A stretch of DNA of 51,096 bases from Patescibacteria group bacterium (GTDB lineage: Bacteria > Patescibacteriota > Patescibacteriia > UBA2591 > UBA6264), in NCBI GenBank assembly GCA_035269445.1, contig DATFJC010000012.1:1-51096 (forward strand), written 5' to 3'. A program made the translations under genes and the position numbers. Shown one piece after another: positions 40,376 to 45,580 of this stretch (positions within the stretch are counted from its first letter, which is position 1; each line of letters starts with the position of its first letter). The notes under the pieces are model-generated. The model made no database searches, was not told the DNA's origin, and saw nothing but the letters and a program-made list of their open reading frames with translations.

Positions 40376-40600
40376 TTATAGTTTAACCTTAATCACCTCC
40401 TTGTCCGAGAAAAGAGAAAACCTTCCCTTTCCTCCAAGTTTAACTACTAAGGTTCTTGCCCTTGCTGTTTCACAAGGAGCAAAGTCCTCCTCTATCTTAA
40501 CATAAATGTGGCTACTGATCTCGTTTGAAAATACGCTTGGGGGCATAATAAATGCCTCGCCTGGTTTTAAATGCTCCAATCTAACGGTTTTAACTCTCAT
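40376..40600 (-). CDS. Small hypothetical protein (74 aa), paralogue of the 81-aa protein at 41228..41473
   Basis: GGAGG SD 4 nt before the ATG, with its own promoter and terminator. It shares LxxLKxGxxFI and VxKLGxxGxFS with the 81-aa ORF. Confidence 0.65.
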   Translation of the reverse strand: MRVKTVRLEHLKPGEAFIMPPSVFSNEISSHIYVKIEEDFAPCETARARTLVVKLGGKGRFSLFSDKEVIKVKL

Positions 40601-41227: not shown

Positions 41228-41473
41228 CTACATTATAACCGGGATTATTCTTGTATCAGACGGCATAACTTCGACAATAGAGATAAACCCTTCTTGACCT
41301 AGCCTCATAACCGAAGCTTTGGGTCTAATCCCCTTTCCTTCATCTCTTTTTGCCCAAATAACGTTTGGGCCGTCCAAAGAATAATTTTTATCGTCACTAA
41401 CAACGATAAAAAGATCGCCTATTTTTAAATCAGATAACTTGCAAACAGACACTTTTTTGGTTTCCCGTTTCAT
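41228..41473 (-). CDS. Small hypothetical protein (81 aa), paralogue of the 74-aa protein
   Basis: G-rich SD (GGGGGG) before the ATG, with its own promoter and terminator. Motifs are LSDLKIGDLFIV and VMRLGQEGFIS. Confidence 0.65.
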   Translation of the reverse strand: MKRETKKVSVCKLSDLKIGDLFIVVSDDKNYSLDGPNVIWAKRDEGKGIRPKASVMRLGQEGFISIVEVMPSDTRIIPVIM

Positions 41474-41537: not shown

Positions 41538-42236
41538 CTAAACACCCCTTAACTCAGTCTCTTGAACTTTTTTTTCTAAAATACTTTTAAATTCTTTTAG
41601 TTTTTCCTCTTTTAATGGCTTTAATTTAGAAAACTCTTTTTTTAAGGTATTTTTAGGCCTAAATTGTTGCAGGGCGTGCTTTTTAGCACCCTTAACAATG
41701 TCTCCAATTTTTTTAATTTCTTGTTTGTCAATAATGCCTGGGACTACAGTTGTTCTAAACTCATAATTTTTAAAATTTTTAATAATTTCAACACTTTTTT
41801 TAATATCTTCAACATTACAATTATCAACCCCAGCTGCTTTTGAATAATTTTCAAAACTAGCCTTAATATCCATAGCAATAAAATCAAGCAAATCTTTTTT
41901 AATTAACTCTTTTATCATATCTGGATTTGTTCCATTGGTATCAAGTTTTATTAAGTAGCCCAAATCTTTAATCTTTTTTAAAAAATCAGGCAAACTTTTA
42001 TAAATTGTTGGTTCTCCCCCAGTCACAACAACCGCTTCAATAAGACCCTGCCTTTTTCTTAAAAAATTAAAAATCTTTTCTTGTTTTATTTCTCTTCTTT
42101 CCTCAGCTAATAATAAGCTCTTATTATGACAAAAACCACATTTAAAATTACAACCATTGGTAAAAATAATACAAGAAACAAGACCTGGATAATCAAGTAA
42201 GCTATTTTTTTGTAATCCTCCAATTGAAATAGACAT
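41538..42236 (-). CDS. nrdG: Anaerobic ribonucleoside-triphosphate reductase activating protein (radical SAM)
   Basis: 232 aa with CNFKCGFCHN (CxxxCxxC) and GGEPT. Its start overlaps the nrdD stop as TAATG. Confidence 0.9.
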   Translation of the reverse strand: MSISIGGLQKNSLLDYPGLVSCIIFTNGCNFKCGFCHNKSLLLAEERREIKQEKIFNFLRKRQGLIEAVVVTGGEPTIYKSLPDFLKKIKDLGYLIKLDTNGTNPDMIKELIKKDLLDFIAMDIKASFENYSKAAGVDNCNVEDIKKSVEIIKNFKNYEFRTTVVPGIIDKQEIKKIGDIVKGAKKHALQQFRPKNTLKKEFSKLKPLKEEKLKEFKSILEKKVQETELRGV

Positions 42237-45200
42237 TATTTTGCACTTTTAGAAAAATTAGCTCTATCTTTAAATTCTTCCTGTTTACCTTCGTTCCATT
42301 GTTCAACTGGCCTTAAATAACCTACTACCCTTGAATAAACCTCGCATTTAGTAGTTTTACCTTCATTTTTACATTTAGGACAATATTTTTCTTCTCCATT
42401 AATGTAACCATGATTTGGGCAAATTGAAAAAGTAGGAGTTAAGGTATAATAAGGAAGAGAATAATTTTTAGCAATTTTTTTTACTAAATTTTTTGTTGCT
42501 TTAATTGAGGGCATTTTTTCTCCTAGCCAAGTATGGAAAACAGTATTATGAATAAAAACCATTGTGTTTTTCCCGGCTAAATAATTATGATTTTTTTGGG
42601 TGGTTAAATCATAAAAATTATTATCTTCAACGTCTACCTTAGAAACATCTTGGACCCTTACTACAGAAAAATGCCTTTTAACCCTATTGGATATATTTTC
42701 ATTTATTCTTGATTTATTTACTGTGATAGTTAATTGGTCTTTTATTCTAGCAAATTCATAATTAGGAATTCTAATTCTGTATATATTTTTTTCATTATCT
42801 CTTTTTACCTTTTCCAAGCTTCTTCCTACCATTAAACCAGCTTTACTAAAGATAGGAACAAGATCGTCGGCTAGGCTTTTAGAAACAGTGTAATATTCAA
42901 AATCACCTTGTTTTTTATCTATATGCCCATCACTATCTGCTAAACCAGATAATAAATCAAAAACGTTATTTTTATTAAGATTCTTTTTAACTTTTTTTGG
43001 TATTAATACATCATAAACCTTTTCTCCATCTGAGAAGCCTATATCAAAGAAAAACTTCAAAGCTTCTTTTTTAGAAGTAGATATTTCTAACAATCTATTA
43101 CTTCTTTTGTCATTAGAAATAATATGCGCCTTACAGCCAAAATGCTTTTTTAATATATCCCTTGTCTTCTCAAGGGGTTTTTTATGCTCACTAAAAAATC
43201 TTATCTTATACTTTTCTAACTTGTTTCCTCCTCTATCGTCAACATATCTTGATATACAACCATCTCCCACAAAAAACCCAATAAGCCACATTAAATCTTT
43301 TCCGATTTTAGTATCTTTATCTGGATATAAATTTTGTGAATTTTGCAAAATATAATCTCCTTTTTTTAATTCGTCTGCCCTTTTCTCAACTATTTTATAA
43401 TTTGGTGAATTTTCATACTTTTTTCTGCATTTAGAATTATTTTTGATATGGTTAGCAAATCCCTTGATTCCTTTAACATTTTTATTGCATATTGGGCAAG
43501 TTTTTGTAGGTTTAATTTTTTTCTTAATAAAAAATGGGTGCCAATCAGAAGTAGTTATATCTAAACCTCTTTCTGCCTTTATTCTAACCTTGTCATGCTT
43601 TTCTACATTTACCCTCATCGCATCTTTAACCTTATCCCATTCACTCACACCCTTATCTGGATTATAACTCAAAACCTTAATAGGTTTTAAATCATCAAAA
43701 TTATTAACTATATTTTCTATATTTATCGCTCCCTTATTAGTCAAAACCTTATTCCCTTTTTCAATACAACCTCCTGTATATTTACTCTGAAGTGGATCTT
43801 GTAGGTCTAAGGCTTCAAAGATGTCATCTGTTAAACCAAAGGGAAGTTGAGTTGAATTAGTATAAACAGGCTCTTTTTTCCCCAAAGTATCAATATTATA
43901 AATCTTAATATCACCAAATTCTTTTTTATCATTTCTAGCCAAACGATAGCTTGAACCTTCGGCCGGAGTAGCTTCTAAATTAAATATGTCACCTGTTTCT
44001 TTTTGAAAGTCACCAAGCTTGTCTCTCATAAAATCTAAAATCTTTTTAGCAAAACTAGAACCTTTCTTTGTGCTAATATTAGTATCCTTTAAATTCATTA
44101 AAGCATCATTTACCCCAATTAAACCAATGGTAGAAAAATGATTTTTCCAATACTGACCTTGTGATTCTTTTACTTTTCTTAAATAAAATTTGGAATATGG
44201 ATACATCCCCTTTTCAGTTAAGTCCTCCAAAACCTCTCTTTTTATTTCCAAGCTTTTTTTGGCTTTTTCCATTAAGTCACCAACTCTATTAAAAAATTGT
44301 TTTTCACTACTAGATAAATAAGCAATTCGAGGCATGTTTAGAGTAACAACTCCAATTGAACCAGTTAAAGGATTGGAACCAAAAAGGCCACCACCTCTTT
44401 TTCTAAGTTCTTTGTTGTCTAACCTAAGTCGACAACACATAGAACGAGCATCTTCTGGTTTCATGTCAGAATTAATAAAATTAGAAAAATAAGGAGTACC
44501 ATACTTTGAAGTCATCTCCCATAAAGGATCTAGAGTTTCATTATCCCATTCAAAATCTTTAGTTATGTTATAGGTAGGGATGGGAAAGGTAAAGGGTCTA
44601 TCTTTGGCATCACCTTCAAGCATTAATTCTGCAAAAATTCTATTTAAGATATCAACCTCCTCTTGAAACTCACCGTAAGTTTCATCTTTGGGTTTGCCCC
44701 CTATTATAACTGATTGATCTTTTAAATAAGAAGGTACCTTTAGATCCATGGTGACATTTGAAAAAGGAGTTTGAAAACCCACCCTTGTTGGAACATTCAT
44801 ATTATATAAAAACTCTTGCATGCATTGCTTTGCTTCTTTATAAGATAAATCATCATATCTTATAAAAGGAGCAAGCAAGGTATCAAAATTAGAAAGAGCC
44901 TGGGCCCCAGCTGATTCTCCTTGCAAAGTATAAATATAATTTACCACTTGTAAAAGGGCTACATTAAAATGTTTTGCTGGACCAGATTCTATTTTACCTC
45001 TTACCCCTTTAAATCCAGATGATAAAATATCTTCTAAGTCCCAACCTACGCAATATACGCCAAGTGTACCCAAGTCGTGGATATGTAAAAAATTATTATT
45101 ATGTTCTTTTCTTACTTCTGGAGGATATATTTTTTCAAGCCAATATTTTTTCACAACCTTGTCAGCAATATGAACATTTAATCCTTGAAGAGAATAACTC

Positions 45201-45580
45201 ATATTAGAGTTTTCTTTAACTCGCCAATCTTTTTCTTTTATATAATTATCTATCAAAGAAGTGTCAGACAAAGCTCCATCAAATTCTCTTAACCTATTAT
45301 GCTGAGAACGATAAAGAATATAAGCCTTGGCTGTTTTATAATGACCACTTTCAACCAAACGACTCTCTACAATGTCTTGAACTGTTTCAACAGTAGGAAT
45401 TTGGCCTTTATCAGTTTTATTTTTTAACCTTTGAATTACCTTTTTTGTTAAATCTTTGGCCAAGTCTTTATTTGTACCACCAACTGCTTGAGCTGCTGAC
45501 CAAATAGCTTTAGTAATTTTTTGAGGATCAAATTTTTGAATTGATCCGTCTCTTTTTTTAATTTTTTTTATAGTTTCCAT
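42236..45580 (-). CDS. nrdD: Anaerobic (class III) ribonucleoside-triphosphate reductase, interrupted by an in-frame 408-aa intein
   Basis: 1114 aa with an N-terminal ATP-cone (IKKRDGSIQKFDPQKITKAIW), the ARSMCCRLRLD active-site loop and a C-terminal Zn site CPNHGY...CPKC. The glycyl-radical motif is SRVVGYLRPVEQWNEGKQEEF. The extein alone is 706 aa. Confidence 0.95.
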   Translation of the reverse strand: METIKKIKKRDGSIQKFDPQKITKAIWSAAQAVGGTNKDLAKDLTKKVIQRLKNKTDKGQIPTVETVQDIVESRLVESGHYKTAKAYILYRSQHNRLREFDGALSDTSLIDNYIKEKDWRVKENSNMSYSLQGLNVHIADKVVKKYWLEKIYPPEVRKEHNNNFLHIHDLGTLGVYCVGWDLEDILSSGFKGVRGKIESGPAKHFNVALLQVVNYIYTLQGESAGAQALSNFDTLLAPFIRYDDLSYKEAKQCMQEFLYNMNVPTRVGFQTPFSNVTMDLKVPSYLKDQSVIIGGKPKDETYGEFQEEVDILNRIFAELMLEGDAKDRPFTFPIPTYNITKDFEWDNETLDPLWEMTSKYGTPYFSNFINSDMKPEDARSMCCRLRLDNKELRKRGGGLFGSNPLTGSIGVVTLNMPRIAYLSSSEKQFFNRVGDLMEKAKKSLEIKREVLEDLTEKGMYPYSKFYLRKVKESQGQYWKNHFSTIGLIGVNDALMNLKDTNISTKKGSSFAKKILDFMRDKLGDFQKETGDIFNLEATPAEGSSYRLARNDKKEFGDIKIYNIDTLGKKEPVYTNSTQLPFGLTDDIFEALDLQDPLQSKYTGGCIEKGNKVLTNKGAINIENIVNNFDDLKPIKVLSYNPDKGVSEWDKVKDAMRVNVEKHDKVRIKAERGLDITTSDWHPFFIKKKIKPTKTCPICNKNVKGIKGFANHIKNNSKCRKKYENSPNYKIVEKRADELKKGDYILQNSQNLYPDKDTKIGKDLMWLIGFFVGDGCISRYVDDRGGNKLEKYKIRFFSEHKKPLEKTRDILKKHFGCKAHIISNDKRSNRLLEISTSKKEALKFFFDIGFSDGEKVYDVLIPKKVKKNLNKNNVFDLLSGLADSDGHIDKKQGDFEYYTVSKSLADDLVPIFSKAGLMVGRSLEKVKRDNEKNIYRIRIPNYEFARIKDQLTITVNKSRINENISNRVKRHFSVVRVQDVSKVDVEDNNFYDLTTQKNHNYLAGKNTMVFIHNTVFHTWLGEKMPSIKATKNLVKKIAKNYSLPYYTLTPTFSICPNHGYINGEEKYCPKCKNEGKTTKCEVYSRVVGYLRPVEQWNEGKQEEFKDRANFSKSAK
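42545..43768 (-). mobile_element. Class 1 intein with LAGLIDADG homing endonuclease inserted in NrdD (Cys1 ... His-Asn / Thr+1)
   Basis: The junctions are QSKYTGG|CIEKGNKVLTNKG and NTMVFIHN|TVFHTWLGE. Block B is ITTSDWHPFF. The two LAGLIDADG motifs are LMWLIGFFVGDGCIS and VFDLLSGLADSDGHI, and block F is NFYDLTTQKNHNYLAG. The element is exactly 1224 nt and in frame. Confidence 0.9.

Follow-up and report, generated by a model that had tools for sequence, protein, structure and literature searches.

A LAGLIDADG intein in the nrdD gene of a Patescibacteria group bacterium carries a C2H2-like zinc finger within its splicing domain, predicted to act as a DNA-binding accessory module

Analysis of contig DATFJC010000012.1 (assembly GCA_035269445.1, from a Patescibacteria group bacterium), whose 51,096 nucleotides are referred to here as the window, showed that nrdD, the gene for the anaerobic (class III) ribonucleotide reductase (RNR), is interrupted by a 408-residue insert which is almost certainly a genuine splicing-type intein and which contains a zinc-finger motif in an unexpected place, inside the splicing (Hint) domain. 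Inteins in RNRs are textbook knowledge; in our judgment the intein itself is ordinary, and its accessory module moderately novel. Our overall reading, to which we give a probability of roughly 0.6, is that of a class 1 homing intein in nrdD whose finger serves as an accessory DNA-binding module. Judged by its conserved residues, the intein would both splice and cleave DNA, and it is probably an active selfish element, as a preliminary description made from the sequence letters had proposed.

The minus-strand open reading frame (ORF) at 42236..45580 encodes a 1114-residue NrdD precursor in which the intein extends from residue 605 (Cys1) to residue 1012 (the terminal Asn), corresponding to 1224 nt at 42545..43768. 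Writing a slash for the junction, the upstream flank ...LQSKYTGG gives way to CIEKGNKV..., and ...NTMVFIHN is followed by TVFHTWLGE; in-silico excision yields a 706-residue NrdD with the contiguous sequence ...LQSKYTGG/TVFHTWLGE. All splicing residues are intact in the intein: Cys1, block B TTSDWH with T73 and H77, F385, D387, the H407-N408 pair, and Thr+1. LAGLIDADG motif 1 (LMWLIGFFVGDGCIS) occupies intein residues 159-173 and motif 2 (FDLLSGLADSDGHID) residues 270-284, and both catalytic acids are present (GFFVGD169G and GLADSD280G). Profile searches agreed, at levels well out of the reach of chance. In Pfam, the precursor matched NRDD (2e-188, split around the insert), Intein_splicing (2e-16), and LAGLIDADG_3 (PF14528; 4e-14, 53 bits); in NCBIfam, intein residues 1-81 matched intein_Nterm TIGR01445 with a score of 36.7 against a cut-off of 24.5, and intein_Cterm TIGR01443 was likewise over its cut-off. 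The preliminary description had placed a 408-residue LAGLIDADG intein at these coordinates, splitting YTGG/TVFH, and had listed the splicing determinants, the two LAGLIDADG motifs, and a CX2CX12HX6C element; sequence, profiles, model, and structural search bear out the intein, every listed feature is present, the removal of 1224 nt does restore YTGGTVFH and a 706-residue NrdD, and the LAGLIDADG_3 profile and the Hint fold that it had suggested looking for were both found.

The predicted structure tells the same story. An AlphaFold2 model of the intein, built with 60 homologues, reached a mean predicted local distance difference test score (pLDDT) of 90.8 and a predicted template modelling score (pTM) of 0.88, and the secondary structure assigned to it by DSSP is consistent with the twice-repeated αββαββα core of a LAGLIDADG endonuclease. 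A Foldseek search with the model returned PI-PfuI, the RNR intein of Pyrococcus furiosus (1DQ3), as the best match (E 1.7e-26, TM score 0.71), and the top matches were all intein structures; the TliVMA and PhoVMA inteins, PI-TkoII, and PI-SceI (E about 1e-13) came next, and the free LAGLIDADG enzymes I-DmoI, I-Tsp061I, and I-SceI were matched at E 1e-7 to 1e-6. By sequence, too, PI-PfuI is the best solved relative (2e-23), followed by PI-SceI. Sequence and model together identify a class 1 intein in which a monomeric homing endonuclease with two LAGLIDADG motifs is nested, and the endonuclease of this copy, with both of its acids in place, is probably still active.

The zinc-finger motif, CPIC-x12-H-x6-C (CPICNKNVKGIKGFANHIKNNSKC), has its putative ligands at C91, C94, H107, and C114 in intein numbering. 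These four residues are conserved in 115 of the 119 full-length family copies (among 120 listed), while neighbouring positions vary freely; F104, Y118, an N at helix position -1, and a K at +2 are also conserved across copies that are 42-63% identical to this one. The spacing C-x2-C-x3-V-x5-F-x2-H, with V98 and F104, is that of a classical C2H2 finger in which the fourth ligand is Cys. Scanned alone, the 43-residue finger segment matched Pfam family DUF7501 with 30.5 bits (cut-off, 27), whereas a scan of the whole intein gave 25.2 bits, slightly below the cut-off; DUF7501 was matched by 49 of 51 family fingers, and several C2H2 families were matched more weakly. A profile search of sequences in the Protein Data Bank retrieved C2H2 fingers such as those of ZBTB7A and Aart. 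In line with the structure prediction that the preliminary description had called for, the segment folded as β, β, helix both in the whole-intein model, where the 10-residue blocks covering it have pLDDT values of 82-88, and in a model of the isolated 51-residue finger. It is also basic: the net charge per residue is +0.115 in the family and +0.24 in this copy, compared with +0.043 for the rest of the intein. Taken together, sequence and models point to the CX2CX12HX6C element being a C2H2-like finger of the DUF7501 type with a probable ββα fold, and by its sequence such a finger would be expected to bind zinc and to contact DNA. The precursor and the adjacent activase gene are laid out as follows.

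42236..45580, minus strand: nrdD precursor ORF, class III anaerobic RNR with N-terminal ATP-cone (Pfam NRDD 2e-188, ATP-cone 5e-23; NF006126 1031.7 bits).
43769..45580, minus strand: N-extein, amino acids 1-604, ending ...LQSKYTGG (PF13597 positions 1-473).
42545..43768, minus strand: 408-residue intein, Cys1...His407-Asn408 (sequence, Pfam, NCBIfam, PI-PfuI match, model, Foldseek).
43517..43768, minus strand: N-terminal part of the Hint domain, intein amino acids 1-84, with blocks A and B (T73, H77) (TIGR01445; C1, T73, and H77 invariant in 119/119).
43403..43516, minus strand, ligands at 43427-43498: predicted zinc-finger insert, intein amino acids 85-122, C2H2-like ββα, DUF7501 (conservation in 115/119, profile, model).
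43319..43402, minus strand: returning Hint strand YKIVEKRADEL and linker to the endonuclease, amino acids 123-150 (aligns to PI-PfuI 105-122).
42734..43318, minus strand, motif 1 at 43250-43300 (D169) and motif 2 at 42917-42964 (D280): LAGLIDADG endonuclease domain, amino acids 151-345 (LAGLIDADG_3; I-DmoI and PI-PfuI folds).
42545..42733, minus strand: short linker, amino acids 346-365, and C-terminal Hint part, amino acids 366-408, with blocks F and G (F385, D387, H407, N408) (TIGR01443; residues invariant; PI-PfuI 298-425 corresponds to residues 332-379 here).
42236..42544, minus strand: C-extein, starting at Thr+1 with TVFHTWLGE..., with the Cys4 zinc site, the glycyl-radical motif RVVGY, and the stop codon (alignment to Thermotoga maritima NrdD 4COI).
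41538..42236, minus strand: nrdG activase, radical SAM (Radical_SAM 1.4e-22; start codon shared in part with the nrdD stop, TAATG).

Inside the intein, the plus strand holds two antisense frames, of 82 and 74 amino acids (43107-43355 and 43443-43667); in AT-rich DNA, such frames have most likely arisen by chance.

After block B, the Hint domain forms a β-hairpin, and the finger is a 39-residue insert at its tip, where PI-PfuI-like relatives have an 8-residue turn. A phmmer search, run exhaustively over 1.84 billion representative proteins, returned 371 relatives of the intein, and among the subset examined the 47-residue finger-bearing segment occurred only in NrdD-site inteins; the inteins at the GGG/TGF site of class II RNRs, and most other relatives, have the 8-residue turn at this position. 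The C2HC element, which the preliminary description had already thought unusually placed, is thus a clade-specific insert in the Hint domain. The same NrdD site also harbors inteins that have done without it: four finger-less full-length inteins (P0123, P0124, P0127, and P0128) and one with a truncated finger (P0125) have intact junction residues, and mini-inteins of 146-172 amino acids at the same YTGG/TV.H site (P0138, P0140, P0141, and P0145) have lost both endonuclease and finger and retain the Hint signatures of the family together with the splicing residues. Since the finger-less inteins and mini-inteins keep all splicing residues, the finger does not belong to the splicing apparatus. 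A link to the endonuclease is suggested within the family of 119, where an endonuclease acid is lost in three of the four copies that lack the finger, compared with 14 of the 115 that have it (Fisher p 0.009). In the intein tree, finger-less lineages are scattered among finger-bearing ones, two of three class II inteins fall outside, and the basal forks are unresolved; read qualitatively only, this would fit a single gain of the finger followed by several independent losses.

The nearest relatives outside NrdD (P0158, P0162, P0168, and about 18 others) are in class II-type RNRs, at (K or Q)xGGG/C...HN/TGFxFS, where the junction is also GG/T. The GG/T junctions in both RNR classes might have arisen by ectopic homing from one short DNA target to a similar one; structural homology of the class II GGG/TGF and NrdD YTGG/TV sites seems unlikely, the former lying in the N-terminal third and the latter in the C-terminal sixth of the protein.

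We envisage the following sequence of events. After translation, the Hint domain would remove itself through an N-S acyl shift at Cys1, attack by Thr+1, and cyclisation of Asn408 aided by His407, Thr73, and His77, and splicing would join YTGG to TVFH to give an active 706-residue NrdD. The freed intein would then act as a rare-cutting endonuclease on empty nrdD alleles of the type ...AAATATACAGGAGG/ACTGTTTTCCA..., and repair of the cut allele would copy the intein in, which constitutes homing. In this scheme, the C2HC finger would be a zinc-stabilised ββα module grafted on the tip of the Hint β-hairpin following block B; it would take no part in splicing and would most likely add affinity or specificity for the homing site. 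That the finger is a DNA-binding accessory domain, as the preliminary description had surmised, is, on the sequence evidence, somewhat favored. Accessory DNA-binding domains are an established concept for endonuclease-bearing inteins, and the DNA recognition region (DRR) of PI-SceI is itself an insertion into Hint (Beyer and Iwaï, PMC8966425). Read as in that work, an accessory domain is an extra folded module that varies among related inteins, and the 39-residue insert is such a module.

Several observations weigh against this interpretation. In VMA inteins, the connection between Hint and endonuclease lies away from the DNA interface (PMC8966425). A Foldseek search with the model of the isolated 51-residue finger (pLDDT 69) ranked a C2H2 finger first at a nonsignificant E of 1.8, the domain being too small for the method. 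The copies behind the association between finger loss and endonuclease decay are phylogenetically non-independent. Two finger-less inteins, P0127 and P0131, keep both catalytic acids, so an intact endonuclease does not depend on the finger; conversely, 14 copies with a degenerate endonuclease still have the CCHC ligands. Finally, the copy in the window deviates at 10 of 147 conserved positions, compared with a family median of 5, among them K316R and K319E on a strand predicted to face DNA.

The last of these observations bears on whether this copy, rather than the family, is still mobile. It may be an immobile, fixed relic in which splicing is kept since nrdD is indispensable and the endonuclease no longer cuts; this is compatible with our reading of the family, and we regard it as a tentative alternative, though the strongest. 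Its departures from conserved positions are twice the family median, the nearest sampled intein is only 63% identical, and GC content at third codon positions (GC3) is nearly the same in the intein (0.216) and its host gene (0.198), which suggests long residence; because the intein matches its host gene in GC3, a recent arrival from a compositionally different donor is not indicated. Against this, the two LAGLIDADG helices are intact, each with its catalytic Asp, the departures are mostly conservative, and an empty site is present within the genus. Across the family, moreover, the intein is conserved like the extein around it (mean identity, 57% for the intein and 55-57% for the flanking extein), which points to ongoing selection on the element in its entirety; the correlation between intein and extein identity is weak (r 0.31-0.38).

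Neither the insertion site nor the intein family is rare: both recur abundantly in public sequence data. Searching with intein residues only, at least 189 protein clusters matched at E <=0.001, and among the 120 listed, the full-length copies, without exception (119/119), are in NrdD at YTGG/C...HN/(T or S)V.H. According to the source labels, the hosts include bacteria of the candidate phyla radiation (CPR; Pacebacteria, Nealsonbacteria, and Minisyncoccales) and DPANN archaea (Woesearchaeota, Nanoarchaeota, and Aenigmarchaeota), with Caldisericum, Omnitrophica, and Parabeggiatoa as further labels and Halobacteroides halobius DSM 5150 and Halanaerobium as cultured hosts. In the same 119 copies, C1, T73, H77, F385, D387, H407, and N408 are invariant; the +1 residue is Thr in the window copy and Thr or Ser across homologues. 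D169 is kept in 108 copies and D280 in 106, and by this measure a minority of copies show the usual decay of the endonuclease. A tblastn search of 50,697 phage records with the intein gave no match, and a pattern scan of IMG/VR viral contigs with a single protein, which reaches only close relatives, found nothing; these searches thus give no indication that viruses carry the intein.

Occupancy of the site among related genomes is patchy, the pattern expected from homing and loss. NrdD scored over the cut-off in 48 of 60 related genomes; about 29 of these genes are uninterrupted, several carry inteins at other sites, and the intein described here was found in two genomes (G014 and G047). In a genome of the same genus (G002), the site is empty and reads KYTGG/TVFHTWLGEKMP, with flanks identical to the window at 54 of 60 bases and a C-terminal extein whose identity is 90% at the protein level and 87% at the DNA level; the empty-site sequence of this allele, GATCCACTTCAGACAAAATATACAGGAGGC/ACTGTTTTCCACACTTGGTTGGGAGAAAAA, is a candidate target of the endonuclease. 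The nrdD gene of the same genome (G002:C15) is nonetheless an open frame of about 1855 amino acids with three other inteins, near PF13597 positions 55, 157, and 276. Intein complements differ completely within one genus. In a genome of the same family (G014:C41), a 2528-residue nrdD frame is broken at five places, one of them by a zinc-finger intein that is 60% identical to this one. Two checks put forward in the preliminary description, alignment to intein-free NrdDs and a search of related genomes for intein-minus alleles, thereby gave clear answers: homologues, including the same-genus allele, run straight across the site and have no homology over the 408 residues, and uninterrupted genes are frequent, with the site in G002 empty.

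A different account of the finger, which we consider unlikely and rank below that of the relic, is that it is a structural staple or inert passenger, a zinc-stabilised extension of the Hint hairpin with no role in DNA recognition or regulation. The finger-less relatives with apparently intact endonucleases, the retention of CCHC in the 14 copies whose endonuclease has decayed, and the distance from DNA of the Hint-to-endonuclease connection in VMA inteins (PMC8966425) would all be accommodated by such a staple. What speaks against a staple is that the four ligands, F104, Y118, the helix N at -1, and the K at +2 are strictly conserved across copies only 42-63% identical, that the segment is strongly basic, and that, in a selfish element, an insert without function should have decayed or been deleted in more than 4 of 119 copies.

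Much less probable is that the finger works as a zinc or redox switch that gates splicing, cysteine oxidation or metal loss slowing the reaction, in which case NrdD would mature only when conditions suit it. The host NrdD is oxygen sensitive and is the only RNR found, the finger directly follows block B, and some other inteins, such as that of mycobacterial DnaB, are known to splice conditionally under zinc or redox control. Yet no splicing residue is missing from the mini-inteins and finger-less inteins at this site, finger loss tends to accompany endonuclease decay and not changes in splicing residues, and the motif is of the classical nucleic-acid-binding type. The broader form of this idea, in which a metal- or redox-sensing finger would couple maturation of the sole RNR to zinc or anoxia by making splicing conditional, has in our view only a slim chance of being right; if true, a selfish element would have been co-opted as a post-translational switch on the supply of deoxyribonucleoside triphosphates in minimal genomes. 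That the insert is a lineage-specific NrdD domain retained in the mature enzyme, with no intein involved, is hardly credible, as the intein-defining residues, profiles, and fold are all present and, in close homologues, the segment is missing exactly where splicing is predicted to join the exteins.

Among characterized inteins, PI-PfuI is the closest counterpart: it has a Hint domain and a two-motif LAGLIDADG endonuclease, an RNR host, and a GG/T-type junction, and it shares with the window intein the signatures WHPFF...EKRADEL and NYLAG..F(I or V)HN. In PI-PfuI, however, WHPFFV leads directly to TPDFKIVEKRADEL, with no finger, and about 80 extra residues lie between the endonuclease and the C-terminal Hint part (127 residues, compared with 47 here). 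We take this extra segment of about 80 residues to be the Stirrup accessory domain; the window intein has no Stirrup equivalent, whereas PI-PfuI carries one away from the finger position. PI-SceI of the yeast VMA1 gene is also a LAGLIDADG intein, and its DRR, like the finger here, is placed inside Hint. The DRR is a larger β-rich region and is not known to be a zinc finger; we saw no sequence similarity to it in the finger region, and DNA binding has been demonstrated for the DRR whereas we infer it for the finger.

Zinc fingers have been joined to intein-derived nucleases elsewhere. In the yeast HO endonuclease, the zinc finger is at the C-terminus and the protein is not known to splice any longer; here, by contrast, all splicing residues are retained, and the single finger lies within Hint. 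The likeness is that HO and WHO combine an intein-derived LAGLIDADG nuclease with a zinc finger, HO being described as a zinc-finger domain fused to a degenerated intein (10.1101/2020.01.20.913210). DUF7501 comprises small haloarchaeal zinc-finger proteins, for example, HVO_1252, of unknown function (PMC12091111); their Cys/His pattern is the same, but they are free-standing, whereas the finger here is embedded in an intein. As to the host gene, inteins interrupting nrdD, as this one does, have been reported in Clostridium phages c-st and D-1873 (PMC3653736). In the literature, we found no account of this NrdD insertion site or of a splicing-competent intein with a zinc finger in its Hint domain; class III RNR inteins are not treated separately in the main text of Novikova et al. 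2016 (PMC4760082).

The host gene appears to be an ordinary one. Pfam and NCBIfam identify the extein as a class III RNR with an ATP-cone, and it aligns to T. maritima NrdD (4COI), including the Cys4 site and RVVGY, with VSGG/AILH as the equivalent of the insertion site. The start codon of nrdG overlaps the stop codon of nrdD (TAATG, 42234-42238), which suggests that translation of the reductase precursor and its activase may be coupled. The nrdD-nrdG pair is neighbored by ComEC-like, PspC, and AI-2E transporter genes, which mark the host as a bacterium; small ORFs of 74 and 81 amino acids flanking the PspC-domain gene (40376-40600 and 41228-41473, minus strand) had no Pfam match. The assembly comprises 535 kb in 47 contigs and is 86.6% complete, and no class I or II RNR large subunit was found in it; within the bounds of an incomplete genome, NrdD appears to be the sole RNR, and the intein would therefore have to splice. 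To this extent the preliminary description was right to speak of an essential gene in a reduced genome. No second intein was found elsewhere in the assembly. A weak DUF7501-like match elsewhere in the genome (G000:C40:1716-1814) turned out to be the Cys4 zinc site of the NAD-dependent DNA ligase LigA, unrelated to the intein finger.

For annotation, the practical point is that a 1114-residue ORF encodes a normal 706-residue NrdD, the only RNR detected in the genome. The natural series at this single site, with finger-bearing inteins, finger-less inteins, and mini-inteins of 146-172 amino acids, offers ready-made controls, and the mini-inteins could serve as compact splicing domains. What is unusual is a conserved C2H2-like finger within Hint, confined to one very successful clade with hosts among CPR bacteria, DPANN archaea, and a small number of cultured anaerobes. 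Should the finger touch DNA, the clade would be a natural fusion of a zinc finger and a LAGLIDADG meganuclease, of interest to nuclease engineers, and the finger would represent a new type of intein accessory domain beside the DRR of PI-SceI, the Stirrup of PI-PfuI, and the VMA domains. Accessory domains are thought to help inteins escape extinction.

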